From positions 1 to 54,763 of the IMG/VR virus record IMGVR_UViG_3300047284_000338: a stretch of DNA of 54,763 nt; one strand, 5' to 3'. Position numbers and translations under genes: made by a program. The stretch comes from a virus. Lineage: Duplodnaviria; Caudoviricetes. The notes beneath the pieces are model-generated. The model did no database searches and was not told the origin of the DNA. It worked only from the letters and a program-made list of their open reading frames with translations. Shown in pieces: positions 12,751 through 26,713 of this stretch (positions within the stretch are counted from its first letter, which is position 1; every line of letters begins with the position of its first letter).

Positions 12751-13073
12751 GGGAGGCGGCCCAGTATTGGGCTGCCGCCGGATCAGTCAAAGACGACACG
12801 GCAGACGACGCTCGCTTGATGGGCGTCGTTCTGCCTGAGTCAGAGACCGAAGAAGAAGATTTCGAGGTCTGGCCCGAGAACTGGGACATCGTGATGATGT
12901 TTCTGCGCATGCAGACGCAGTGGAACATCACGATGGGCGGCTACGCCGGGTTGAAGTACGAGACCCTGCGGTGGCTGTGCGACCTATACTCAGTGGAGGA
13001 TCCAAAGGCCATGCTGGAGGGCATCCAGGTCATGGAAGCCGCTGCCCTCAAGGTTCTGAACGACGATGGCTGA
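12741..13073 (+). CDS. gpT-like frameshift extension (gpGT C-terminal part)
   Basis: KKLREAAQYW...FEVWPENWDIVMMFLRMQTQW...GLKYE...IQVMEAAAL. Confidence 0.8.
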   Translation, partial: KKLREAAQYWAAAGSVKDDTADDARLMGVVLPESETEEEDFEVWPENWDIVMMFLRMQTQWNITMGGYAGLKYETLRWLCDLYSVEDPKAMLEGIQVMEAAALKVLNDDG

Positions 13074-16000
13074 ACAGGTCGCACGGCTAAAGATTCTCGC
13101 CCAGGTCGAAGGGCTCGAAGGCTTTGACAAGCTGAAGAGCGTCTTCAAGGGCCTGCAGTCGGCGATCGGCCCGACAGACCAGCAGCTGAGCAAGGCTCGG
13201 CGCGAGGTCATGGCCTTCGGCGAGGCTGGCGCTAAGACCGAGCAGGTGCTGCGCGGGCAGATCGAGGCGCTCAAGGGCCTACAGGGCCAGGCAACGATCG
13301 GCGGCAACGTCTACCGGCAGCTCAGTCGCGACCTGAAGGCCCTGGGCGAGGCCTACGGCGAAACGGCCACCCAGGCCAAGAAGCTCAGCGAAGCGCAGCT
13401 GCGAAACCAGGCGGCGTCGAACAAGCCGTCTGCATTCCAGCAGCAGATCGCAGCTCTCAAGAAGGAGCTGAACGAGCTCAACATCCTCAGCAATGAGTAT
13501 GCGACCGCCCTGGCTAACATCCAGCGGCGCGAGATTCGTTTTGGCATGGGCTCTGCCCGGCAGAACGTCGTTGCTCGCAATCAGGCATTCGAGAACGACA
13601 ACTTCCTGGCACCGGATCGTCTCAACGGTCAGCCAGATCTGCCCAATACGACGGCTGCCCTGAATCAGCGGCTGGCCGAGCTCAAGGACCGCTTTCAGAA
13701 CCTCACCAGAGGCGGTGAGCTCTGGATCCAGACCCAGCGGGAGATCACCAGCCTTCAGCGCGAGCTGAATCGCGAGTTTGCCAACCCGGCGCTGGATGCT
13801 GCTCGCCGCCGGCTGGAGCAGTCTCGCGCCGCCAACTCGGGCAGCGGCTTCTTGGCCTTCTCGCAGGGCCTCGAAGACCGCATGGCGGTGCAGAGGTCGA
13901 TCGAGCGCAACGCCGCCAAGCGGCGGCCCGCGGCGATCGAGATGCCGATGATGGAGACGAGCGAGCTCTATCGCTCGATCCAGGGCGTTGGCTTGAGCCG
14001 GATCAGCTCGCAGCTTGAGCTGATGGGCGGCAGCTATCAGCAGGTCGCGGGCGACATCCGCAAGGCCACCGTCGCATCTGACGGCAGCATCAACAGCCTT
14101 CGCAACCAGCGTGCTGCATGGGAATCGCTGCGCAACAGTCTGGGCGACAACAGAGCCGCGCTGAAGGAGGTCAATCAGGAGCTGGCCAAGATCGACCGCC
14201 AGCTGGAGAAGCGCACCGGCGGTGGGAACGCGCTAGGCAATAGGTTCCAGACGCTTGGCGCTGTTGCCTCCGGTGCTGTGTTCGGCGGCCCTGCTGGTTT
14301 CCTGGGGGCGGCGGGCGGCGCCGCATTCGGCATGTCAGCTGCCGGCAAGGCTGCCGGATTGACATCGTTTGGAGGAGCACTGGGAGGTGCAGCCATCGGG
14401 GCTGGCGTCGCTGGCGTGGGAGCGGTGGCGGTTGGCGCCAGCAACTATGCGGGCGAGATCGCTCGCCTGCAGATCGCGTTAAAGGGCGTCAGCACCGACC
14501 AAGGAGAGTTCAACAACAGCCTGAAGTTTATTCAGCAGTCAGCACCGCAATTCCTCACCAGCATTGGAGATGCCACCAGGAACTACACGCGACTGCAAGC
14601 ATCGGTTCGCGGTGCAGGCATGGGCGTCGAAGAGACGCAAAAAGTCTTCAAAGGCTTGAGCGCAGCAATCATCGCGACTGGAGGTAGTACAGAGCAGCTG
14701 AACGCTGCAATGCTTGCTGCGTCACAGGTGTTCTCAAAGGGCAAAGTGAGCGCCGAAGAACTGCGCGGCCAGATTGGTGAGCGCTTGGCGGGCGCGTTTG
14801 TGATTTTTGCCCAGTCGATGGAGAAAACGCCAGAATCTGTCGGCAAGGCTTTAGAAAAGTCGTCGAAAATGAGCACAAAGGAGCTGGACAAGCTTCTGCA
14901 AGAGGGCAAGGTTACCACTCAAGACTTTGTGCGCTTTAACGAAGAGCTTTCAAGGCGCTTCGAGGGAACCTCCAAGGCAATTGGAGAGTCACAATTTGCA
15001 GCCAGTATCCGCTTCCAGCTGGCGATGGACAACTTCAAACTGGCCGCCGGTCAGGCGCTGCTGCCGACCATTACGTTCTTCCAGGACCTCGGCACCGAGG
15101 GCCTGAACGCTCTCACCCGTATTGCCCAGGGCCAGACTGGCTGGCAGCGGGCCATCGGCGAGACATTTAACTGGATCGGCAAGCTGATCGGCGGCGTAGA
15201 GGGTCTGAACAAGATCCTCTCCGGCCTGATCAAGACCATGATTGTGCTGGGCGGCGTGCAAGCCGGCCTGTTTGTAGTCAGCAACCTGACGGCGTTCTCA
15301 AACGCCTTTCAGGGCATCCTGACCGCCACGCGCACGCTGCTCGAGCTGAGCAAGTCGCTGCTGAAGGTTGAGACGGCCCGGGCAGCAATCAACGCGATCC
15401 TGGCCGGCCTGACCACCGGCGCCACGAAGGGCAAGGTGGCCGGCGCGGTGCTCGGTCTGACGGCTGGTGGCGTCGCGGCCATCGGCCTGAGCAAGTTCGT
15501 GGATTCGGTGGTGGAGAACATCACCGGCTCGATTGAAAAAGCCACGAAGATGCCCGAGTTGGGCGGCGGTTTTGGTGGGCAACCATCACCATTGCCTTCT
15601 GACCAGTCAGAGGACGAAAGAGCTCGGAAGGAAGCTGAGAAGCTCGCGGCCGAACAGCAGCGGCTCGATGAGCAGGTGGCCCGGGCGAAGGCTGCGCTCG
15701 ATGATGCGACCCATCGCACAGCGATGGACCTCATCCGCAAGCGCTACGAGTACGAACAGGAGCTGATCAACAAGCAGCGCGACAACTGGGTGAAGTCGCT
15801 CACCGGCGCAGCCCGAACCGCCGGCGGCCTGATCATTAGCTTCTACGGTCAGCTGGATGAGCTTGCCAACCGCCGACGCCAGGCTGCGATGGACGTGCTC
15901 AATGCACAGCAGTCGCTCAGATCAGCTCAGGCGATCGGGGCCGTCACGGGGCAAGGTGGCATCATTGGCCGCACGGGCAACACCGGCCAGAGCACCGGCC

Positions 16001-17502
16001 CTCACCTCGATGCTCGCTGGGCTGACGGCCGCCGCATCACCGCGGAAGACGCCGACCGCTACCTGTCGGTCAACGGTCGGGACCCCTCCAGCTTCGGCGT
16101 CACCAGCGGTTACGGCCCGCGCAGCATGTTCGGCCGCAGTTTTCACCGCGGCATCGACTTCGGGACCCCGGCCGGCAGCGCCATCAGCCTGAAGGGCGGC
16201 GCCAGCCTGTTGCGTGACCTGGGCTTCACCGGCGCCGGCGGTTACGCGGTCGAGATCATGACGCCCGAAGGCCCAATGCGGCTTCTGCACCTGCAGGGCA
16301 ACGAAGGCGCAAGGGTCGCAACAGGTAGGACTGGCGTCGCCGCCCAGCAGCTGCGCGACGTCACCGCCGACGGCAGGGCGTCGGTGGAGCGAGTCGAGCT
16401 CGAGGCAGCCACCGGGGCCCAGAGGATTGTCGACCAGGGGGTCGGGAAGCTGACCGAGGAGGCACGCAAGGGCTTCGTGTTGGACTTCACCGAGCAGCTG
16501 CGTGGTCAAAATGCCGAGCTGAAAAATTCGGCCGAGCTGACCCGCCTGCGCAATCAGCTGGAGCTCGAAGGTCGGAAGCCTGAGTACATCGAAGGCGAGC
16601 TCAAGAAGGCGCAAGCCATCCAGCAGGTCGCCCAGGCGAACGCCGTCGCAAAGGCCGAGCTCGACAAGCTGGTTGCAGCCGGCCAGGGCAACTCGGTCCA
16701 GGCTCAGGCGCAGCGCGAGGCGATCGCGAGCAACAACCTGCAGCTGGCTGAGTTCAAGCGCCTCACGGATGAAGCCACAGCGTCGCAGCTGCGCTTCAAC
16801 GAGTCTCTGCGGCTGCGCCAGGACATGCGGATCGGCGAGGGCTTCACGCAGGGTGTGCAGCAGTACGTCCAGAGCATCGGGACGATGAAGGACGCCACCG
16901 CTCAGCTGGTGCAAACCGGGCTGAAGGGCGTCGAGGACGTGCTGGTCAACCTGGTGACCACCGGCAAGGCCAACTTCCAGGAGTTCGCGGCCAGCATCCT
17001 CAAGGACACCGCTCGGATGATCATCCAGCAGCTCGTGCTGCGGTCGGTCATGCAGGCGATCGGGTTTCTGGGCGGCGGCGGCGGCGGCTTTGGCGGCGGC
17101 TACTTCAACCCCATTACCGGGTTGGGAGCGGCTGGTCCTAACTTCGGCTTCGCCAAGGGCGGCGCATTCGCTCAAAACGGCATCGTGCCGTTCGCCATGG
17201 GCGGCATCATCGACAAGCCCACCCTGTTCAAGTTCGCCAACGGCGGCGCCGGCCAGCTCGGCTTGATGGGCGAGGCCGGGCCCGAGGCCATCATGCCTCT
17301 GCGCCGCGGCCGTGACGGCAAACTGGGCGTCGTGGCTGCAGGCGGTGGCGGAGACATCAACGTCAGCGTCTCAGTCGACGCCGGCAGCAGCCAGGTGCAG
17401 GGCGACAGCAGCCGCGGCGAGCAGCTGGGCAGAGCCGTGGCGGCAGCCGTCCAGCAGGAACTGATCCGCCAGAAGCGTCCTGGCGGTCTTCTCGCGGCCT
17501 AG
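13066..17502 (+). CDS. Tape measure protein with internal M23 peptidase-like domain
   Basis: 1478 aa, helical; SQVFSKGKVSAEELRGQIGER tape-measure motif; lambda-type C-terminus (FAKGG, MGEAGPEAIMPL, QKRPGGLL). Confidence 0.95.
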   Translation: MAEQVARLKILAQVEGLEGFDKLKSVFKGLQSAIGPTDQQLSKARREVMAFGEAGAKTEQVLRGQIEALKGLQGQATIGGNVYRQLSRDLKALGEAYGETATQAKKLSEAQLRNQAASNKPSAFQQQIAALKKELNELNILSNEYATALANIQRREIRFGMGSARQNVVARNQAFENDNFLAPDRLNGQPDLPNTTAALNQRLAELKDRFQNLTRGGELWIQTQREITSLQRELNREFANPALDAARRRLEQSRAANSGSGFLAFSQGLEDRMAVQRSIERNAAKRRPAAIEMPMMETSELYRSIQGVGLSRISSQLELMGGSYQQVAGDIRKATVASDGSINSLRNQRAAWESLRNSLGDNRAALKEVNQELAKIDRQLEKRTGGGNALGNRFQTLGAVASGAVFGGPAGFLGAAGGAAFGMSAAGKAAGLTSFGGALGGAAIGAGVAGVGAVAVGASNYAGEIARLQIALKGVSTDQGEFNNSLKFIQQSAPQFLTSIGDATRNYTRLQASVRGAGMGVEETQKVFKGLSAAIIATGGSTEQLNAAMLAASQVFSKGKVSAEELRGQIGERLAGAFVIFAQSMEKTPESVGKALEKSSKMSTKELDKLLQEGKVTTQDFVRFNEELSRRFEGTSKAIGESQFAASIRFQLAMDNFKLAAGQALLPTITFFQDLGTEGLNALTRIAQGQTGWQRAIGETFNWIGKLIGGVEGLNKILSGLIKTMIVLGGVQAGLFVVSNLTAFSNAFQGILTATRTLLELSKSLLKVETARAAINAILAGLTTGATKGKVAGAVLGLTAGGVAAIGLSKFVDSVVENITGSIEKATKMPELGGGFGGQPSPLPSDQSEDERARKEAEKLAAEQQRLDEQVARAKAALDDATHRTAMDLIRKRYEYEQELINKQRDNWVKSLTGAARTAGGLIISFYGQLDELANRRRQAAMDVLNAQQSLRSAQAIGAVTGQGGIIGRTGNTGQSTGPHLDARWADGRRITAEDADRYLSVNGRDPSSFGVTSGYGPRSMFGRSFHRGIDFGTPAGSAISLKGGASLLRDLGFTGAGGYAVEIMTPEGPMRLLHLQGNEGARVATGRTGVAAQQLRDVTADGRASVERVELEAATGAQRIVDQGVGKLTEEARKGFVLDFTEQLRGQNAELKNSAELTRLRNQLELEGRKPEYIEGELKKAQAIQQVAQANAVAKAELDKLVAAGQGNSVQAQAQREAIASNNLQLAEFKRLTDEATASQLRFNESLRLRQDMRIGEGFTQGVQQYVQSIGTMKDATAQLVQTGLKGVEDVLVNLVTTGKANFQEFAASILKDTARMIIQQLVLRSVMQAIGFLGGGGGGFGGGYFNPITGLGAAGPNFGFAKGGAFAQNGIVPFAMGGIIDKPTLFKFANGGAGQLGLMGEAGPEAIMPLRRGRDGKLGVVAAGGGGDINVSVSVDAGSSQVQGDSSRGEQLGRAVAAAVQQELIRQKRPGGLLAA

Positions 17503-17512
17503 GATCTGACCC

Positions 17513-17857
17513 ATGGCGACATTCACCTGGACCCCTGATTATCCGTTCACGGAAACGAGCAAGCCGCGTGTTCGAAAGGCGGAGTTCGGTGACGGCTATG
17601 AGCAGCGGATTCGCTTCGGCCTGAACACCGATCTGAAGACCTACCCGCTGACATTCAAGGCTCGCGACAACACCGAGACGGCCGCCATCCGCGCCTTTCT
17701 CGAGGCGCGTGGTGGGTCGGAATCGTTCACATGGACTCCGCCGCTTTGGGGTGCCGCGGCCGGCCAGTACGTGTGCGAGGAGTGGCAGATCACCGGCGAC
17801 TCGTGCGAACTGAGCTCCATTTCGGCGACCTTCCGCGAGGTAGCTGAACCCGCATGA
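17513..17857 (+). CDS. Minor tail protein M (distal tail)
   Basis: FGDGYEQR...GLN, FLEARGGSESFTWTPP, ATFREV. Confidence 0.92.
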   Translation: MATFTWTPDYPFTETSKPRVRKAEFGDGYEQRIRFGLNTDLKTYPLTFKARDNTETAAIRAFLEARGGSESFTWTPPLWGAAAGQYVCEEWQITGDSCELSSISATFREVAEPA

Positions 17858-19020
17858 CGGTCCCCCAGGCGATCACTGAGGAACTGCAGAAGGTCGAGCC
17901 CAGCTCGATCATCGAGCTGTTTGAGCTGCAGCTGGTCCAGGCGCTCCATGGCAGCACCGACATCTACAGGTTCCACGCTGGCGTCAACGCAAAGAACGAC
18001 GGCGGCAACATCGTCTGGGCCGGGCAAGCCTACACGGCATTCCCGGTTGAGTGCGAAGGCTTCGAATACAGCGGCAACGGCCAGCTGCCACGGCCCAAAC
18101 TGCGTGTGGCCAACGTGCTCGGCACGATCACGACCGTGCTCCTGGCGGTCAATGCCGTCACCCCTGGCAACGATCTGATTGGGGCAAAGGTCATCCGGCG
18201 CCGAACGCTGGCCCGCTACCTGGACGCCGTCAACTTCACCGGCAATGTCAACCCCTACGGCACCCCAGACCCGACTGCTGAGTTCCCTCAAGAGATTTAT
18301 TTCATCTCAAGGAAGGTGTCCGAGAACCGCGATCTCGTGGAATTTGAGCTTGCTGCGGTTTTTGATTTACAGGGCGTCAGAGCGCCGAAGCGACAGTGCA
18401 TCTCAAATATTTGTCAGTGGACTTACAAATCCGCCGAATGCGGCTACACCCCCGTGAACAGCTTCACGGGCACTTACCAGCAGAAAGTGCTCTCAGCCAC
18501 TTACTCCAGGTCTGGTACTACGATCACCATAACCAGTGCATCGCACGGCATCACAGCCGGTGACGTCGTGCATCTCGACTTCACAAGCGGCGCTGGCGTG
18601 GACGGGTTTTTCACGGTTGTCACAGTGCCAACCACCGGCGCTTTTACTGTCACTTCTGGTGCAAGCGGGGCGACCAACGGCGATGTAACCGTCCGCTGTT
18701 ACAAAGTCACGGCTGCATCTCATGGCCTCTCGGTAGGTGACAATGTGCGCCTCACACCGACCACTGGCGCGGCATCTGGCGGCTCGTTCATTGTGGGCGC
18801 CGTGAGTGCTGGAGCGTTTTCCGTGCAGCTCTCTGCTGGTGGGGGTAACACGAGCGGGGATGTCACCGCCTCCCAGTGGTACACCGACAACGATTTATCC
18901 ACCACGTCCTCCACCGCTGATGTCTGCGGGAAGCGTGTAAGCAGTTGTGAGGCTAGGTTTGGAGCCAATTCGTCACTGCCGTTCGGCTCCTTTCCAGGGG
19001 TCGGGAGCTACACGCTATGA
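17854..19020 (+). CDS. Minor tail protein L with internal insertion
   Basis: [38 protein letters not shown] ... [18 protein letters not shown]. Confidence 0.92.
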
Positions 19021-19724
19021 CCTGGCAAGCAGAAGCCCTGGCACACGCGCAAGCCGAAGACCCACGGGAATCTTGCGGCCTTTTGGTTGTCATCAAGGGC
19101 AGGCGGCGCTATTGGCCATGCAGCAATCTGGCCGACACTCAGGACTTCTTCGTGCTTGCGCCGAAGGACTGGGCTGCAGCCGAAGACGCCGGCGAGATCG
19201 TGGCCGTCGTCCACAGTCATCCTGTCACCGCCCCTGAGCCGAGCCAGGCCGACCGCATGGCTTGCGAGCGCAGCGGCCTGCCCTGGCACATCGTGAACCC
19301 GAAGACGGAGGCCTGGGGCGGATGCAAGCCCGAGGGCTACAAAGCTCCTTTGATCGGCCGCAGCTGGGCTTGGGGCGTGTCTGACTGCTGGACGCTCGTT
19401 CGCGACTGGTATGCCGAAGAGATGAAGATCGAGCTGCGTGATTGGGAGCGCCCGGCCCGGTCAGACGAGTTTCAGCGAGAGCCGGTTTTCGATCAGTGCT
19501 GGCCGGATACTGGCTTTCGAGAGCTGCGAGAGGACGAAGAGCTTCAGCGCGGCGATGCGCTCCTGATGGCGATCAACAGCAGGGGTCTGAATCACGTCGG
19601 CGTCTATCTTGGCGACCAGATGATCCTGCATCACCTGCAGGGACGCCTCAGTAGCCGGGACCTTTACGGTGGCTGGCTCCTACAATGCACCGGGAGGCGG
19701 CTTCGTCATGCTTCGCAGGATTAA
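19017..19724 (+). CDS. Tail assembly protein K (JAB + NlpC/P60)
   Basis: PRESCG, VHSHP...[30 protein letters not shown]. Confidence 0.95.
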
Positions 19725-20307
19725 GCTCTACGGCCCGCTTGCGAAGTTCATCGGCAAGCGCGTGCTTTATGCAGATGTGGCAACCGCGGCTGAAGCTGTG
19801 CGCTTCTTGCTGGCAAATTGGCCCACGGTCGAGAAGCATATGGCTGATCAGCACTACCGCGTCAGCGTCGGGGGATACGACATCGCTCTCGAAGAGCTGC
19901 ATCATCCCGCCGGCCAGCAAGAGATCAAGATCGTCCCAGTGGTCGCTGGCGCTGGAACGGTCGGGCGGATTCTGGCCGGGGTTGCCTTGGTGGCGCTCGC
20001 GATCGCAATCCCGGGGATCGGCGGCGGCGTCGCTGCCACGATCTTCGGTACGAAATTTTCGGCGCTCTCGCTGGCAATCGGCGGCGTCGGTCTAAGCCTG
20101 GCTCTCGGCGGCGTTGCGCAGCTGCTTACACCAGTGCCACAGGTTCCGCAGGTCGGCAAGGATTCCGACAAGGACCCTCGCAAGTCTTATAGCTTCAGCG
20201 GAATCCAGAACGTGTCGAGACAGGGCGTTCCGGTACCGGTGGTCTACGGCGAGACCATCGTGGGCTCAGTGACCATCAGCGCCGCCGTTGACATCAGCCA
20301 GACATGA
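19708..20307 (+). CDS. Tail assembly protein I
   Basis: [38 protein letters not shown]. Confidence 0.93.
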
Positions 20308-23300
20308 CCGACATTCAACTGATCTCTGGCGCCGGCGGTGGTGGTGGCTGCTTCCTCGGCCATACCCTGATACGCACACCCCAGGGCTTGCGTCCGATCG
20401 AGACGCTCGACCGCGGCGATCAAGTATTGAGCTTCGACGATCAGGGCCAGCTACACACGGCGACGATCCTGAAGGTCCACGTCCATGAGGGCGAGCGCGT
20501 GGTGCGCTACCGGCTGTGGGGCGGTGCGGAGCTCGATGCCACACCAAACCACTGGGTACTGAACCAGTTCAACGCCTTCGTGGAGATCGGCACGCTGGGC
20601 GATGACGACTGCCTGGTCGACGAGAACGGCCATCTGCGGCCGATCGTCGGGCGGACTGACCAGGGCACGGGCACGGTGTACAACCTGACTGTCGAGGGTC
20701 ATCACACGTTCATTGCTGGCGGCATTAGGGTCCACAATGCCGGCTTGGGCCTAGGCATTGCCGGTTCAGGCGGCTTTGGCGGCGGCGGCAAAGGCGGCGG
20801 CGGCGGCACCAGGACTCCGACTGAGGCAGCCGATGACCTGAATAGCAGCGCCACCGTCGAGGTAATCGATCTCCTTGGCGAGGGCGAAATCGAAGGCTTT
20901 GCCACGCCATCGAAGGCCGGACTGGCCCGTGACAGCGCGGACTGGAACCGCGCCATGCTCAAAGACATCTACCTCAACAACACGCCAATTCTTCGACAGG
21001 GCGCGAGCAATTCTGCGCCCGCCGATGGCGACTACAACTTCAAGAACGTCGGAATCGAGGTCAGATACGGCACCCAAGCGCAGCAGCCAATCAACTCCAA
21101 CACTGGCAGCGGCGCTTCGGCAAATGAAGTTGCGGTCGGAGTTGTTGTCGAGAAAAACGTCCCTGTCACCAGGACGATCACGGATGTCAATGTCGACGCC
21201 GCAAGGGTGACAATCTCTTTCCCGCAGTTCCAGCAGTTCACGGACCAGGGCGACATCGTCGGCACCAGCGTCCAATTGCAGATCGCGGTGCAGTACAACG
21301 GCGGCGGCTTCACGACTGTCATTACTGACACAGTCACCGGCCGGTCTGGCGATCAATATCAGCGCGACTACATGGTGAATTTATCCGGCGCTTTTCCAGT
21401 CGACATTCGTGTAACGCGTGTCACGGATGACAGCAACAGTACCAAGTTAATCAACGCATTTACGTGGACCAGTTACACGGAAATTGTCGCGAAAAAATTT
21501 CGGTACCCGAACAGCGCATTAGTCGGAATGAGGGTTAATGCTGAGCAGTTCAGCAGCATCCCTACGCGGAGCTTTCGAGTCCGCGGACTAAAGGTTCAGA
21601 TCCCGAGCAATGCGAACGTTGACTTGGCCACGGGGCGTCTGGTTTACTCCGGCGTGTGGAACGGCACGTTCGGGGCCGCGCAGTGGACCTCGGATCCTTG
21701 CTGGTGTCTTTGGAATCTGTTGACCAGCAAAAGGTTTGGATTTGGTGATCACATCACTGCGGCAAGCTTGGACAAATGGGCCTTTTATTCGGCTAGTCAA
21801 TATTGCAACGAGCTCGTTCCGACCGGCTTCGGAGGCACTGAGCCTCGCTTCTCACTGAACTGCAACATCCAGACAGCGGAAGAAGCTCACAAGCTGATCA
21901 ACGACTTGTGCAGCGTGTTCCGGGCGATGCCCTACTGGGGCACGGGTGCGCTGACAGTGGCGCAGGACAAGCCCACAGATCCGACCTACCTTTTCACTTC
22001 CGCCAATGTTACCGAGGAGGGCTTCTCCTACTCGGGCAGTGACTCCAAAACGCGGCCGACGGTGGCAGTTGTGTCTTACCTCGATCTCACCACGAGAGAG
22101 ATCGCTTACGAGGTAGTCGAAGACGCCGCTGCAATGGCAAAGTACGGAGTCGTCACCTCAGAGATTGCTGCTTTTGCATGCACCTCCCGCGGCCAGGCTG
22201 CTCGCCTGGGTGAATGGCTCCTTTACTCAAATCAGTACGAAACAGAGGTCTTGAGCTTCACCGCGTCGGTCGATGCGGGTGTCCTAGTCCGCCCAGGACA
22301 GGTGATTGAGGTGGCGGATCCTGCTCGTGGCGGCGCAAGACGGGGTGGTCGTGTCGCCTCGGCAACAACAAATACCATTACGGTCGATAATCCGGTCGAT
22401 CTTCCTGATAACGGCGGCACGATTTCAGTCATCTTGAAAGATGGCAGCCTAGAAGCTCGGCCGGTTGTTACACGTGTGGGTAGCACTTTGACTGTTAGCC
22501 CGGCTTTCTCGTCGGCGCCGGGTATCAATTCCCTTTGGGTCTACAGCGGTGGCGGCATCCAGGCGACGCTGTGGCGCGTCTTGACGGTTCAGGAGCAGGA
22601 CGGAGCTCGGTACTCGGTGACGGCTTTGAGCTACAACCCGAGCAAGTATGACTTCATTGAGCGCGATCGGCCGTTGCAGTTCAGAGATGCCACAAACCTG
22701 AACCTAATCCCTGCCGCGCCTACGCGCCTGTCTCTCGCCGAAGCTCTTTACACGTATCAGGCCGAAGTGCGGGCAAAGGTGATCATCACCTGGCGCCAGG
22801 TGCGCGGTGTGAATCAATACCGAGTGAGGTGGCGGAAAGCCAGTGGCAACTGGAATACGCACACCACCCAGAGCCCTGACCACGAAATCTTGAACATCAC
22901 CCCGGGACTGTTTGAGGTGGAGGTGTTTAGCTTGAACTCTGTTGGCCAGATCAGCACGACAGCGCTGACAGGGAGCATCAACGCTTTAGGTAAGACGGCC
23001 CCGCCGAGCAATGTATCGGGTATGACGTATGCAATCGACAGCGATCTTGGCGTTTCGTTGAGCTGGAGTCCGGTTTCGGATCTAGACATCAAAGACTATG
23101 AGATTCGGCGAGGTGGCACCGACTGGGGCAGCGCTACACTTTTGGCATATGTAAAAACGACACGCTATGTTCTTGGGCTTATTGATCCCAGTGTTACAAG
23201 GTACTGGGTCAAGGCGAGAGACACGAGCAACGTTGTAAGTCAGAGCGCCGCTTCAACAACGGTCGTCATTACAGCGCCTGGTGCGCCTACCGTGACGCAC

Positions 23301-25058
23301 GCCATCCAAGATCCGCTTGCGATCATCTCCTGGACCACACCATCTGGATCGTACCGCCCAGATTATTACGACCTGCGGTACGGAAACACTTTTGCCGGCG
23401 GTGTGGGCGTCACCCGCGTGTATGGCAACAGTTTTAGTGTTCCAGTCACGTGGAGCGGCAGCCGAACTTTTTGGGTCGCAGGTGTCGATCCGGCAGGCAA
23501 TACTGGTACCGCCGGGTCGCGAGTAATTACTATTTCCGCAGCGCCGGCTCCGACTGTTTCGGCAGCATTCGCTGGAAGCAGCTGCACTCTTTCCTGGACA
23601 CGCGTCGACGGCTCACTGCAGACGTTTTTTTACGAAATTCGCTACGGAGCTTCATGGGAAACCGGCACTAAGGTCACCAAGATCGGCGCGGATGGTACCG
23701 GTTATTCTTTGACTGTCACATGGTCAGGTTCAAGGACCTTCTGGGTAGCGGCAATCGATGCCAACGGAAACTATGGCGCCGCGGGCAGTGTCGTGGCGAC
23801 TGTGGGACTTTCTCCGGCGCCATCGCTGTCCAACACGTTCTCTGGTCCGAATGCGCAGCTTAGCTGGCAACCTGTCAAGGGCACGCTGGAGACAGCCTTC
23901 TATGAGATCCGTCGCGGCAGCGCTTTTGCCAGCGCTACGGTTCAAGGTAAGGTAAATAGCAACTTGTTCACTACCAAGGTAGACTGGACTGGCACCGCTA
24001 AATTTTGGGTTGTCCCTGTAGATACTAACGGCGGCTATGGCGAATCAGCCTCTATCGATGTCACTTTGCCGGCCCCTTCCCAGCCCTCCATCGCTGTTCA
24101 GGTTGTCGACAACAATGTCTTGTTCCGGTGGCAGGACTGCACGACAGTGCTTCCAGTCGATGCTTACGAGTTGCGCCGAGGCTCGAATTGGGCGTCTGCA
24201 ACGGTAATTGGCACTAAGTCAGGCCTGTTTACCTCGGTATTCGAAACAACAAGCGGCTCGTTCACGTACTGGATTGCCGCGATTGACAGCTCGGGCACGT
24301 ACGGGGCGCCAGGCAGTGTTTTAGCGGTAGTCAGCCAGCCGCCCGACTACGTTCTGCAGCTTGACCAAAACTCTAACTTCAGCGGTACGAAGGTAAATGC
24401 AGTTCAAGAAAGTGCAACATTGTTATTGGCGGTCAACACTACGGAGACCGTTGAGCAACATTTTACCTCGAGAGGCTGGACGTCACCACAGGATCAGATC
24501 AACGCTGGTTACAGTTTCTGGCTGCTTCCGTCCGCGACATCGGGCTCTTACGAAGAAATAATTGACTACGGCGCTGTGGTGGGTGGTACTCGCGTTAGCC
24601 AAACGCTCACGAGCACGGCCGCCACCGGCTCAATGGTCGCCACTCCTAAAATAAGTGTAAAGAAACTTGCAACCGATGCCTGGACGGACTACCCCGACGT
24701 GGACCAAGTGTACGCCTCCGATTTTCAGTACATTAAGTTTCGATACGATTTCAATAGCGCCGGTAACGACGACCTACTATTGGTCACGAGCTTAAACTAC
24801 AGAATGGACCTGAAGCTCAAGAAGGACTTCGGATCGGGCACGAGCTCTGCTAGTGACGTCGGGGGAACTACAGTGAACTTCAATCTGAGCTTCATTGACG
24901 TGCAGTCCATTACCGTGACACCGTCTGGGACGGCTGCCCGCGTGGCCATCTATGATTTTGTGGATACCCCCGGCCCCACGAGCTTCAAGGTGCTCCTGTT
25001 CGACACCAACGGCAACCGGGTTAGCGGCGGCTTCAGCTGGAGCGCTCAAGGAGTCTGA
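20304..25058 (+). CDS. Tail tip / host-specificity protein J with N-terminal Hint domain and FN3 repeats
   Basis: LLGEGEIEG, YPNSALVG, WTSDPCW, DKWAFY, ACTSRGQAARLGEW, FN3 repeats. Confidence 0.95.
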   Translation: MTDIQLISGAGGGGGCFLGHTLIRTPQGLRPIETLDRGDQVLSFDDQGQLHTATILKVHVHEGERVVRYRLWGGAELDATPNHWVLNQFNAFVEIGTLGDDDCLVDENGHLRPIVGRTDQGTGTVYNLTVEGHHTFIAGGIRVHNAGLGLGIAGSGGFGGGGKGGGGGTRTPTEAADDLNSSATVEVIDLLGEGEIEGFATPSKAGLARDSADWNRAMLKDIYLNNTPILRQGASNSAPADGDYNFKNVGIEVRYGTQAQQPINSNTGSGASANEVAVGVVVEKNVPVTRTITDVNVDAARVTISFPQFQQFTDQGDIVGTSVQLQIAVQYNGGGFTTVITDTVTGRSGDQYQRDYMVNLSGAFPVDIRVTRVTDDSNSTKLINAFTWTSYTEIVAKKFRYPNSALVGMRVNAEQFSSIPTRSFRVRGLKVQIPSNANVDLATGRLVYSGVWNGTFGAAQWTSDPCWCLWNLLTSKRFGFGDHITAASLDKWAFYSASQYCNELVPTGFGGTEPRFSLNCNIQTAEEAHKLINDLCSVFRAMPYWGTGALTVAQDKPTDPTYLFTSANVTEEGFSYSGSDSKTRPTVAVVSYLDLTTREIAYEVVEDAAAMAKYGVVTSEIAAFACTSRGQAARLGEWLLYSNQYETEVLSFTASVDAGVLVRPGQVIEVADPARGGARRGGRVASATTNTITVDNPVDLPDNGGTISVILKDGSLEARPVVTRVGSTLTVSPAFSSAPGINSLWVYSGGGIQATLWRVLTVQEQDGARYSVTALSYNPSKYDFIERDRPLQFRDATNLNLIPAAPTRLSLAEALYTYQAEVRAKVIITWRQVRGVNQYRVRWRKASGNWNTHTTQSPDHEILNITPGLFEVEVFSLNSVGQISTTALTGSINALGKTAPPSNVSGMTYAIDSDLGVSLSWSPVSDLDIKDYEIRRGGTDWGSATLLAYVKTTRYVLGLIDPSVTRYWVKARDTSNVVSQSAASTTVVITAPGAPTVTHAIQDPLAIISWTTPSGSYRPDYYDLRYGNTFAGGVGVTRVYGNSFSVPVTWSGSRTFWVAGVDPAGNTGTAGSRVITISAAPAPTVSAAFAGSSCTLSWTRVDGSLQTFFYEIRYGASWETGTKVTKIGADGTGYSLTVTWSGSRTFWVAAIDANGNYGAAGSVVATVGLSPAPSLSNTFSGPNAQLSWQPVKGTLETAFYEIRRGSAFASATVQGKVNSNLFTTKVDWTGTAKFWVVPVDTNGGYGESASIDVTLPAPSQPSIAVQVVDNNVLFRWQDCTTVLPVDAYELRRGSNWASATVIGTKSGLFTSVFETTSGSFTYWIAAIDSSGTYGAPGSVLAVVSQPPDYVLQLDQNSNFSGTKVNAVQESATLLLAVNTTETVEQHFTSRGWTSPQDQINAGYSFWLLPSATSGSYEEIIDYGAVVGGTRVSQTLTSTAATGSMVATPKISVKKLATDAWTDYPDVDQVYASDFQYIKFRYDFNSAGNDDLLLVTSLNYRMDLKLKKDFGSGTSSASDVGGTTVNFNLSFIDVQSITVTPSGTAARVAIYDFVDTPGPTSFKVLLFDTNGNRVSGGFSWSAQGV
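20349..20738 (+). other. Hint (mini-intein/BIL-like) domain, 130 aa
   Basis: Block A CFLGHTLI, block B ATPNHW, block F VYNLTVEGHHTF, terminal VHN; +1 residue is Ala. Confidence 0.9.
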
Positions 25059-26713
25059 TGGCTAACTGGTCCAACCCCACGCTTACCAGCACCTACTCCA
25101 ACTTTCTGGCGGACCTGAAGGCCAGAGACGAGGACCTGGCAAAACAGTTTGACGGCCAGACCGTCAGCAACCTGGTCACGGGCGCAGTTCGATGGAACAG
25201 CTCGATCAACCGCTGGCAGAAGTGGTCTGGCACGGCCTGGGGCGAGCTGGCGACCACTTACGCCCTGACGGGGCTGAGTACGACCGGCAACGCCAATATC
25301 GGCGGCACGTTGACCGTGACGGGCGCGACTGCGCTGGCAGCGGCAACAGCAACCACGCCGGCCACGGCCGACAACAGCACCAACATCGCGACGACAGCCT
25401 ACGTCCGGGCACAGGGCTACGCCGCTCTGGCGAGCCCTGCTTTCACTGGCACGCCAACCGCGCCAACCGCAGCAGTTGGCACGAACACGACCCAGCTTGC
25501 GACCACCGCGTTCGTGATTGGTCAAGGCGCATCGGCTGCCCCTTTGGGGACGGCCAGCACTGCAACGACTGGAACATCTGCACGTTACGCCCGCGAGGAT
25601 CACAGACATCCAATTGACTTCCTGGACTACGCCTATATCACCAACAGTCCTTGGAAGAACAACTGTCGGCTTGGGACCACCGCCAACCTCACGGCGACTT
25701 ACGCCAACGGCACGGCTGGCGTAGGTGCAACGCTCTCTAACTCAGGCACATTGGCAGCGCTGTCGCTCGACGGCGTTGCGGTTGCGGTGAACGACCGGGT
25801 CCTGGTCAAAGATCAGACCACTGGCGCCCAGAACGGTATCTATACCGTCACCAACGTTGGCTCGGCCTCAGTGGCATGGGTGCTCACGCGAGCGACAGAT
25901 GGTGACACGGCTGCGGAGATGGCCGGAGCGCTGGCTACCGTCGACGCTGGCACGGCAAACGGCGGCAGGCTTTTCACTACCACCTTTGCTGCCTCGGGTA
26001 CTATCGGAACCACTGCGGTCTCTTGGTTCGAGATTCCCACCGTCAGTAGCCCGGCGTTCACTGGCACCCCGACGGCACCTACTGCGGCTGCTGGCACCAA
26101 CACAACGCAGATTGCGACGACGGCGTTTGTAACCAGTTCGCCGTCATTCACTGGCACACCGACGGCTCCAACTGCCGCAGCCGGCACGAACACAACGCAG
26201 ATTGCAACTACCGCGTACGTCACGGCAGCCGCAAACCTGAAAGCAAACCTGGCTTCGCCTGCTTTTACGGGCACCCCGACCGCCCCGACAGCAGCGGCCG
26301 GCACCAATACCACTCAAGTAGCGACGACAGCGTTCGTAAGCGCTGCGTTTACAGCCCGGAGCGTCACGGCAGGTGCTGGCTTAACCGGTGGCGGCACCCT
26401 TGCGGCAGACCGCTCAATTTCGCACGCGGACACGTCCAGTCAGGCTAACGTTTCACTGACCACCGGCAACGTGGTCAGCTCAATCACCCTAGACACTTAC
26501 GGGCACGTAACCGGAATCGGCAGTGCAAATCTCAACACACACTTCTTCAACACAGTCAGCAACTGCCATGGCGCCGTGCAAAACTGCGCGGAGTTTCAGT
26601 GCGGCATTTCAAACTGCGCTACTCTTACCGATCAAGGAGGCAACGTCGCCCTGGGCGGCATTGGCTACGCTCAGTACAACTGCAACTGCGACTGCAACTG
26701 CGCACCAGGCTAA
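25058..26713 (+). CDS. Tail fibre protein with Asn-Cys-rich C-terminus
   Basis: Repeats of SPAFTGTPTAPTAAAGTNTTQIATTAFV; DRVLVKDQ..NGIY domain; ends ...YNCNCDCNCAPG. Confidence 0.88.
   Translation: MANWSNPTLTSTYSNFLADLKARDEDLAKQFDGQTVSNLVTGAVRWNSSINRWQKWSGTAWGELATTYALTGLSTTGNANIGGTLTVTGATALAAATATTPATADNSTNIATTAYVRAQGYAALASPAFTGTPTAPTAAVGTNTTQLATTAFVIGQGASAAPLGTASTATTGTSARYAREDHRHPIDFLDYAYITNSPWKNNCRLGTTANLTATYANGTAGVGATLSNSGTLAALSLDGVAVAVNDRVLVKDQTTGAQNGIYTVTNVGSASVAWVLTRATDGDTAAEMAGALATVDAGTANGGRLFTTTFAASGTIGTTAVSWFEIPTVSSPAFTGTPTAPTAAAGTNTTQIATTAFVTSSPSFTGTPTAPTAAAGTNTTQIATTAYVTAAANLKANLASPAFTGTPTAPTAAAGTNTTQVATTAFVSAAFTARSVTAGAGLTGGGTLAADRSISHADTSSQANVSLTTGNVVSSITLDTYGHVTGIGSANLNTHFFNTVSNCHGAVQNCAEFQCGISNCATLTDQGGNVALGGIGYAQYNCNCDCNCAPG
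25430..26340 (+). repeat. Coding repeats of tail-fibre motif SPAFTGTPTAPTAAxGTNTTQxATTA(F/Y)V
   Basis: Four near-identical copies in the translation, plus a partial upstream copy. Confidence 0.85.

Follow-up and report, generated by a model that had tools for sequence, protein, structure and literature searches.

The J gene and its N-terminal Hint domain

The window, by which we mean the whole stretch of 54,763 nucleotides that was analysed, contains the J gene of an uncultured freshwater phage; all features described here lie on the plus strand. The open reading frame of the gpJ homologue (20304..25058) encodes 1584 amino acids. Upstream of it we find a gpK-like protein with Prok-JAB and NlpC/P60 domains as defined in Pfam (19017..19724) and a gpI-like tail assembly protein (19669..20307), the stop codon of which overlaps the start codon of J (ATGA). 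The match of the latter to the Pfam model Lambda_tail_I is weak (E = 0.0018, 19.1 bits, under the cut-off of 23.8). J itself can be assigned to the lambda gpJ-like proteins by its matches to the profiles lambda_TipJ, FNIII-A_GpJ (residues 273-395) and Phage-tail_3 (residues 525-684), and by its place in a run of tail genes ordered M, L, K, I, J. Since its score for the NCBIfam model lambda_TipJ is 434.5 bits, below the strict cut-off of 1950, we consider it a relative of lambda_TipJ and not an equivalog. The J body, that is, the canonical tail-tip protein, is encoded at 20787..25058; the lambda_TipJ alignment starts only at residue 162, and the Hint domain therefore precedes the canonical start of J.

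J begins with a leader of 15 residues, the N-extein (20304..20348), which consists of a hydrophobic I/L-x-G-A motif and then five glycines; the -1 residue is a glycine. It is followed by a BIL-like mini-Hint domain of 130 amino acids (residues 16-145; 20349..20738), which is recognised by profiles, in an AlphaFold2 model and by Foldseek. Residue 1 of this domain, Cys16 (20349..20351), is invariant in alignment A1 and is the putative nucleophile of an N-S acyl shift, a role assigned because of intein chemistry as given in the accessible part of PMC4031507. Block B is the TxxH motif T80-P-N-H83 (20541..20552), with T80 and H83 invariant in A1, and block F (V125 to F136, VYNLTVEGHHTF; 20676..20711) lines up with the VYN...HT block in 2LWY, a BIL domain. 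The domain ends in block G with His144-Asn145 (20733..20738), likewise invariant in A1, where Asn cyclisation would take place. The +1 residue, Ala146 (20739..20741), offers no side-chain nucleophile. It opens a Gly-rich C-flank (A146-G168; 20739..20807) that repeats the leader motif in the form I-x-G-[AS]-G-G, includes Lys163 and is disordered in the model. An earlier note on this DNA had described, behind residue 15, an inserted Hint domain of 130 residues that lacks an endonuclease, and this is borne out by Cys16, TPNH at residues 80-83 and His144-Asn145. The translation of J also confirms the similar Gly-rich motifs that it saw on both sides of the domain and the Ala at +1, and its range, 20304-20830, takes in the Hint domain together with leader and linker.

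Among the Pfam Hint models, PT-HINT is the only one to exceed its cut-off on J (30.2 bits for the Hint domain against 27.7; when the genome was scanned, the score was 35.8 bits). Two NCBIfam models also match the domain, intein_Cterm with 25.0 (cut-off 15.6) and intein_Nterm with 24.8 (cut-off 24.5). The best sequence match among solved structures is 2LWY, a BIL domain of C. thermocellum (E = 3.5e-7). The AlphaFold2 model has an all-beta fold, with block-mean pLDDT values of about 85-97 across most of the domain, and pLDDT falls below 50 for residues 147-186 of J. In a Foldseek search the model matches BIL2 (6Y75) best (E = 8e-12), and it matches 2LWY with a target TM of 0.86 and an rmsd of 1.7; mini-inteins are found as well, and 6Y75, 2LWY and the mini-inteins all lie at about E = 1e-10 to 1e-11. 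There is no endonuclease domain. Four features of a type A BIL are present, namely an endonuclease-free Hint fold of the usual size (about 130-150 residues), an N-terminal Cys and TxxH, a C-terminal His-Asn and a non-nucleophilic +1 residue.

An optional cassette under purifying selection

The earlier note had proposed a survey of gpJ homologues. Of the 120 J proteins that are closest to the window J, 25 carry the Hint domain and 95 are without it. The ten nearest J proteins (ranks 2-11, 75-91% identity) all lack the domain, and so does P0272, the sister of the window J, with 88.5% identity. The J proteins P0275 and P0380 share 97.2% identity outside one clean insert of 145 amino acids. Compared with the relative L008, the insert in the window J is also 145 amino acids long and comprises the Hint domain and about 15 residues of the Gly-rich C-flank; in the DNA alignment it falls within the coding sequence of the Gly-run. 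On a tree of the J core (120 rows), at least 11 gains or losses of the Hint domain are needed, 9 of which are forced by well-supported branches. Because near-identical relatives do without it, the Hint domain is an optional add-on to J, a cassette of 145 amino acids, and not a required assembly step. Two sequencing runs contain the stretch, in both cases as contigs only, and either may be the source of this DNA; neither showed a joint across the cassette, which speaks neither for nor against a Hint-less variant in the population, and no RNA run with the stretch is listed.

Several comparisons hint at a transfer of the cassette between phages. The window Hint shares 86-89% identity with the Hints of a group of J proteins whose core is no more than 64-69% identical to that of the window J, and 78-80% with the Hints of its own J subclade. 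In the Hint tree it groups with the Hints of these 64-69%-identical J proteins (SH-aLRT 95), and dS between the window and other loci is lower for the Hint than for J. An AU test (30 rows) is suggestive only, as it does not reject a Hint tree with the topology of the J tree (p = 0.052); the domain may also have descended vertically, with many precise losses. The cassette has no homing endonuclease and hence no evident way of spreading actively.

We also looked at the flanks of the domain. The best direct repeat in the window has 28 nt at 71% identity, no more than the content of Gly codons gives, and of the 65 non-identical loci, 33 have a flank repeat (18-37 nt, identity of 85% or above) and 32 have none. 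With no clear signature in the window or across the 65 loci, we rejected a target-site duplication. A co-variation between the leader motif and the motif behind the Hint was dropped as evidence because it is too weak: there are 12 full matches in 102 flank combinations where 7.9 are expected, and 3% of the shuffles, which ignore relatedness, reach 12.

The domain is well conserved where it occurs. Among 120 close Hint-bearing homologues the unit is always exactly 130 amino acids long, the -1 residue is always Gly and His-Asn is always followed directly by AGLG, as it is in all 63 non-identical loci tallied; block B reads DATPNH in 114 of the 120 homologues, DATANH in 5 and NATPNH in 1. Long invariant runs extend beyond the catalytic residues (residues 79-93 and D101-D102-C103 in the Hint, and also the AGLG after the cut site). 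For a tally of the wider family, 148 of the 150 best representatives supplied 207 complete units. All 207 begin with Cys1, 205 end in His-Asn and 183 have a -1 Gly. The +1 residue is K in 115 units, G in 78 and A in 6, and C, S or T in only 2; many of the units without a +1 Lys have a Lys within a few residues of the cut.

The same conservation is seen in substitution rates. In the comparison of the window with 62 loci, the median dN of the Hint is 0.129 and the median dS 1.12; for the 34 usable pairs, omega is 0.11 for the Hint and 0.15 for the next 300 codons of J. For random pairs (248 usable of 600 tried) the values are 0.135 for the Hint and 0.238 for J. The Hint domain, where present, is under strong purifying selection (dN/dS of about 0.11-0.14 at a dS of about 0.7-1.1). 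The pattern of an intact unit is matched by 78 of 80 IMG/VR loci, and a 79th (L031) is intact by eye. One locus, L018, has lost most of block F by an in-frame deletion of 15 codons, with the J frame still open; a Hint that does not cleave may therefore be tolerated, or the L018 phage is defective.

The family is large. At E values up to 0.001, 5612 representative proteins match it, and an alignment-based search shows at least 558 IMG/VR stretches that encode the domain, far more than the 3 loci in genome contigs and 12 in viral contigs found with single-sequence searches. Related Hint units also occur in secreted-looking bacterial proteins; the bacterial proteins that contain type A BILs are often secreted ones. 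In a tblastn search of 50,697 GenBank phage records with residues 1-250 of J, 9 records matched and none had a Hint joined to J; the Hint part matched 3 Ruminococcus phage records only, at 30-34% identity, in an unannotated protein.

Proposed processing of the Hint domain and alternative readings

We propose, with a probability of roughly 0.68, that residues 16-145 are an optional, self-excising Hint cassette resembling a type A BIL, located in a Gly run of the disordered N-terminal tail of J. Judging by its sequence motifs, self-processing is the most likely activity of the domain. Cys16 would attack the carbonyl of Gly15, with the help of Thr80 and His83, and form a thioester by an N-S acyl shift. 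Cyclisation of Asn145, helped by His144, would then cut the bond between Asn145 and Ala146. After this, either the freed alpha-amine of Ala146 would attack the thioester and link the leader of 15 residues to J again (aminolytic splicing), or the thioester would be hydrolysed and J would begin at Ala146. Since there is no side-chain nucleophile at +1, no branched intermediate is expected.

For type A BILs, the accessible part of PMC4031507 describes a thioester, cleavage by Asn cyclisation and ligation via a free amino group, with cleavage products dominating. The same source and the accessible part of PMC7664689 report that BIL domains without a +1 nucleophile mainly cleave, as the earlier note had stated, and that type A can splice by aminolysis. 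Reviews are at odds on this point: PMC7765530 states, against PMC4031507, that type A BILs cannot ligate. For J, we lean slightly towards a rejoined rather than a discarded leader. Cys1 and TxxH are kept, though C-terminal cleavage alone would free J; moreover, at least 7 residues of leader are kept in every full-length N-terminal unit, and the leader motif of the window J is the N-terminal motif of its Hint-less relatives.

Whether rejoined or cleaved, mature J would have a Gly-rich N-terminal tail resembling that of the Hint-less relatives, which would account for the phage's tolerance of the cassette. The Hint and its approximately 15 flank residues are gained or lost as a unit between close phages, probably by recombination in or around the repeated coding sequence of the Gly-run. 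In its behaviour the cassette is closer to a passenger, intein-like but endonuclease-free, than to a dedicated assembly factor. On the other hand, conservation beyond the catalytic residues is not explained by simple self-removal and could mean that the domain has a further function.

This excess of conservation would also suit a Hint domain that does not process itself and stays on the virion J as an N-terminal module, for example as a structural plug or a binding domain. L018, in which the J frame is open without most of block F, points the same way. A purely structural module, however, would not need Cys1, TxxH and His-Asn, which are near-invariant, and given that the domain is joined through disordered Gly linkers and that the nearest relatives do not have it, we think that a retained module is unlikely. 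That the cassette is an inactive, decaying leftover of a former intein is extremely unlikely; the missing +1 nucleophile and the one deletion variant would agree with decay, but the dN/dS at the dS values given above, the 78-79 intact loci out of 80 and the invariant junction residues do not. The earlier note had gone further and suggested a domesticated maturation step of tail-tip assembly, coupled to the JAB-domain gpK and the ubiquitin-like gpI. Its premises, a real Hint with intact residues at the N- and C-terminal junctions and a non-nucleophilic +1, hold; the genes K, I and J do follow one another in this order, and a leader that ends in Gly-Gly beside a thioester-forming domain recalls ubiquitin-like chemistry. 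The assembly role itself is not supported by the comparison with relatives. Homologues of gpK and gpI lie just upstream of J in Hint-less relatives (L007, L008, L011 and L012) and in Hint-bearing ones (L010, L022 and L040) alike, and because the Hint-less relatives keep both genes, the domain does not appear to be a dedicated step tied to gpK and gpI. Together with the 95 Hint-less proteins among the 120 nearest and the P0275/P0380 pair, this makes a domesticated assembly step very unlikely.

There is another possible fate of the Gly15 thioester, which could be taken by a different amine, for example the epsilon-amine of Lys163 in the same tail or that of a lysine on an adjacent protein of the tail tip, to give a branched or cross-linked product. 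BIL2 (6Y75), the top structural match, forms an isopeptide bond to lysine and conjugates its own N-flank to proteins, according to the accessible part of PMC8616854. The N-flank in the window ends in Gly-Gly, Cys1 and TxxH are strictly conserved, and the 115 units with Lys at +1 and the many others with Lys nearby agree with such a product. Yet the transfer of a mere 15-residue leader would be of little obvious use, the N-flank is not ubiquitin-like, the nearest Lys in the clade lies 18 residues past the cut and is shared with the Hint-less N-termini, and the cassette is optional, so that we consider ligation by the window Hint decidedly improbable. By analogy with BIL2, one could still regard the whole module of Gly-run, Hint and Ala, Gly or Lys as a ligation device and not as a passenger, which would pass the thioester at the last Gly of its N-flank to a lysine or another amine and covalently branch or cross-link tail-tip proteins without ATP; we think that this is quite unlikely. 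If it were true, phages and secreted bacterial proteins would share a single cross-linking chemistry in several variants: the form at the N-terminus of J, the caps at the C-termini of other tail proteins and the tandem arrays linked by K-G. Self-excision of an optional cassette is the reading that we prefer.

Novelty and comparison with known systems

In a search of the literature outside subscription-only papers, we found no J-like protein described as carrying a Hint domain. In particular, the accessible parts of seven works (PMC3556154, PMC8790156, PMC5259590, PMC10721106, PMC11101478, PMC13243795 and 10.1101/2024.10.28.620165) contain neither a Hint on a J-like protein nor a statement of where in the tip the first residues of lambda gpJ lie. 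New here are the optional cassette, the 97%-identical pair with and without it, the at least 9-11 gains or losses, the purifying selection and the junction tally of 207 units. The Hint domains on J are a large natural series, matched control included, that bears on the purpose of BIL-type Hint domains; near-identical J alleles with and without the domain are built-in controls at one site of a well-studied structural protein. It can now be tested whether a Hint with Ala or Gly at +1 splices or only cleaves, and whether the cassette costs or benefits the phage. If the domain, lacking a +1 nucleophile, is cleanly excised from between Gly-Gly flanks, it might become a small tool for processing proteins where a scar can be tolerated. 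Annotators should not read 130-145 additional residues at the N-terminus of a J protein as the mark of a different kind of J.

Among the closest known systems is the type A BIL of Clostridium thermocellum (2LWY), which shares with the J Hint the small size without an endonuclease, Cys1, TxxH, the VYN block F, the terminal His-Asn and a +1 residue other than Cys, Ser or Thr, although the sequence identity is only about 27%. BILs are described in the accessible part of PMC7765530 as residing in variable regions of non-conserved bacterial proteins, whereas the J Hint sits on a tail-tip protein of phages, where its position is always the same, in an N-terminal, disordered Gly-run, and is optional between near-identical alleles. 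BIL2 of the polyubiquitin-like locus BUBL1 of Tetrahymena thermophila (6Y75, 6TMM) also has an N-flank that ends in Gly and a non-canonical +1 residue, and by the account of PMC8616854 it is a precedent for the resolution of a thioester through an amine. Its flanks are ubiquitin-like and one of them is conjugated to lysines, while the J Hint, with 21% identity, has an N-flank of 15 residues and a C-flank that is a Gly linker followed by J.

The class 1 mini-inteins (gp41-1, DnaB, RecA) have the same fold, matching A, B, F and G blocks and a sporadic occurrence among alleles. The J Hint differs from them in having Ala146 at +1 instead of Cys, Ser or Thr, and in its site, which is a disordered poly-Gly run and not a conserved active-site motif; its removal would not be traceless, with about 15 extra flank residues and a duplicated flank motif left behind. 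No relatives with an endonuclease were seen among the proteins examined. PT-HINT (PF07591) is the pretoxin Hint of polymorphic toxins and precedes a C-terminal toxin. In J, on the contrary, there is no toxin domain, and only gpJ domains of the tail-tip protein follow the Hint. A different kind of parallel is given by the S74-type chaperone domains, which phage tail fibres and spikes carry at their C-terminal ends. Like the self-cleaving peptidase S74-type chaperones (accessible part of 10.1101/2024.10.28.620165), the J Hint would be part of a phage tail protein and remove itself once its work is done; the two have neither fold nor chemistry in common, and while the S74 module is C-terminal and needed for the folding of the trimer, the Hint of J is N-terminal and dispensable.

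The Hint domain on the tail-tip protein J

The record is complete (CheckV completeness 100, 54,763 bp) and its tail module is lambda-like, with a tape measure protein (13066-17502, + strand), gpM (17513-17857), a gpL homologue of 388 aa (17854-19020, + strand), gpK with JAB plus NlpC/P60 domains (19017-19724), a gpI-like protein (19669-20307) and the gpJ homologue of 1584 aa (20304-25058). By eye, residues 940-1010 or so of the tape measure protein resemble what we take to be an M23/LytM-type peptidase motif. The gpL homologue has about 170 additional C-terminal residues, with a sub-threshold match to an endosialidase beta-barrel domain (23.1 bits, cut-off 35). In the ORF downstream of J (25058-26713, + strand, 551 aa) a unit of some 30 residues, SPAFTGTPTAPTAA.GTNTTQ.ATTAF, is repeated several times and the C-terminus is rich in Cys; Pfam gave no match at E up to 0.01, and the product is probably a tail fibre.

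The J profiles (NCBIfam lambda_TipJ, PHROGs 31, 1727 and 2589) align no earlier than residues 159-162. Upstream of this region we find a leader of 15 residues, the last five of which are Gly; a Hint domain of 130 residues (20349-20738), lacking an endonuclease, with Cys16, T80-P-N-H83, block F at V125 and His144-Asn145; Ala146, directly after the His-Asn pair; and a Gly-rich linker in which the leader's motif, I-x-G-[AS]-G-G, recurs. A scan of the genome found no other Hint domain in this phage.

The earlier note had claimed this domain from the sequence alone, and several independent lines of evidence show that it is real. The Pfam profile PT-HINT scores 30.2 bits on J against a cut-off of 27.7 (35.8 bits in the genome scan), and both NCBIfam intein-end models exceed their cut-offs. 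The best sequence match among solved structures is the bacterial intein-like (BIL) domain of C. thermocellum (2LWY, E 3.5e-7), followed by the Mtu RecA mini-inteins. In an AlphaFold2 model built with 25 sequences, the block-mean pLDDT is about 85-97 across most of the Hint domain and falls below 50 at residues 1-13 and 147-196, so that the domain is predicted to be suspended between disordered linkers. A Foldseek search with this model returned BIL2 of the Tetrahymena BUBL1 locus (E 8e-12) and 2LWY (target TM 0.86, rmsd 1.7), as well as the DnaB, gp41-1 and RecA mini-inteins. Among predicted viral structures the best match is the BFVD entry A0A218MKA3 ("Putative gp62", uncultured virus; 39% identity, 152 columns); therefore at least one viral entry in UniProt, itself without a functional note, holds a close Hint unit.

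Conservation and spread of the family

Using J residues 1-260 we obtained 889 protein matches at E up to 0.001 (8000 scored). Among the matches listed, all 120 homologues have a unit of exactly 130 aa, Gly at -1 and AGLG after His-Asn, while block B reads DATPNH in 114, DATANH in 5 and NATPNH in one. D101-D102-C103 and residues 79-93 are invariant in the alignment of homologues. When 1.84 billion cluster representatives were searched exhaustively, 5612 matched at E up to 0.001, of which 536 reached 1e-10 and 92 reached 1e-30. With a purpose-built profile, at least one Hint unit was found in 148 of the best 150 representatives. Together these 148 contain 207 complete units, every one starting with Cys; Gly precedes 183 of them, and in 205 the last two residues are His-Asn. 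The +1 position is occupied by Lys in 115 units, Gly in 78, Ala in 6 and Arg in 3, and by Gln, Leu, Val, Thr or Ser in one each.

Hint units also occur as arrays. The homologues P0128, P0137, P0165, P0174 and P0215, and about 40 like representatives, are proteins of 450-1130 aa with a short N-terminal segment followed by 2-5 units, linked by K-G(1-5) only; in a Pfam scan each of the five named has two Tim44-like stretches (PF04280). Arrays are combined with an S8 subtilase plus PKD domains in P0210, and with Ig/cadherin domains in P0240.

In IMG/VR, 558 confirmed stretches carry the Hint domain. The intact-unit pattern matched 78 of the 80 loci kept, and the locus L031 is also intact by eye. 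In L018, on the same contig as L010, an in-frame deletion of 15 codons (45 nt, aligned to window 20637-20681) removes most of block F and the J frame is still open; this could reflect decay of the cassette or an error of assembly. Some short contigs from the runs that contain the window resemble parts of the Hint domain (window 20691-20744 and 20472-20550) at <90% identity before diverging into another Gly-rich flank. The sample probably contains further phages with the domain.

Codon analysis shows that the Hint domain is under protein-level constraint and is not merely recent. Comparing the window with 62 loci, the Hint codons have a median dN of 0.129 and dS of 1.12; omega is 0.11 for Hint and 0.15 for the 300 J codons that follow it (34 usable pairs), and for random pairs 0.135 and 0.238, respectively (248 usable of 600 tried).

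Optional presence on J

When only the J core (residues 169-760) was used as the query, 25 of the 120 best matches had the Hint domain, and ranks 2-11 (75-91% identity) were all without it. The N-termini of these Hint-less J proteins are like the window leader continuing directly into a G-K-G run, that is, what remains once the Hint domain and about 15 flank residues (the cassette) are subtracted. In a DNA alignment of the window with loci L008 and L011 the gap falls within the Gly-run. Homologues of gpK and gpI are found upstream of J genes both with and without Hint. The sister of the window J, P0272, lacks the domain at 88.5% identity across 1439 residues. An even closer case is provided by P0275 (1448 aa, no Hint) and P0380 (1592 aa, Hint), which fall in a single 90% cluster. 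Over 1447 residues their identity is 97.2%, and the sole other difference is a clean insert of 145 residues, which makes them a natural matched pair suited to experiments.

On the J-core tree of all 120 matches, the Hint label must change 11 times or more, and well-supported branches force 9 of these changes (shuffled mean 22.8). The window Hint shares 86-89% identity with the Hint domains of J proteins whose core identity to the window J is only 64-69%, and only 78-80% with those of its own J subclade (P0004, P0005). It clusters with the former in a 30-row Hint tree (SH-aLRT 95), and at synonymous sites it is closer to other loci than J is. Since the J-congruent grouping was not rejected by the AU test (p 0.052), transfer of the cassette is suggested, not demonstrated. 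Three J-like proteins (P0003, P0124, P0129) have two tandem N-terminal Hint units, each with its own Gly-run before it, which is consistent with unequal exchange within the repeated Gly-run.

Proposed self-processing and known systems

The residues for both intein half-reactions are present in the J domain and the transesterification acceptor is absent. According to PMC4031507 and PMC7664689, BILs have no +1 nucleophile and yield products mainly from cleavage; type A BILs, whose terminal His-Asn the window Hint domain shares, are there described as able to splice, in the order of thioester formation, Asn cyclisation that releases the C-flank, and attack of the new alpha-amine on the thioester. 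On the other hand, another review (PMC7765530) holds that ligation by type A BILs is not possible. With the motifs present, the acceptor absent and the reviews in disagreement, we read the cassette as one that would excise itself from J, with the leader then either rejoined or lost. We tilt slightly towards the leader being rejoined to J, because Cys1 and TxxH are retained though C-cleavage alone would release J, because every full-length unit has a leader, and because the leader motif is that of the N-termini of Hint-less relatives. Against rejoining, the motif recurs past the cut site, so that a J beginning at Ala146 would look like the native N-terminus as well.

A pretoxin Hint domain was rejected on context. 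The domain is not a canonical intein, since neither its +1 residue nor its insertion site qualifies; in sequence and fold it is type-A-BIL-like on every criterion tested. We found neither a published description of a Hint domain on a J-like tail-tip protein in the literature nor a J carrying one in GenBank phage records. Compared with the known systems, the novelty lies in where the domain sits: it occupies a single fixed position on a phage tail-tip protein, can be present or absent in near-identical alleles, and is very widespread.
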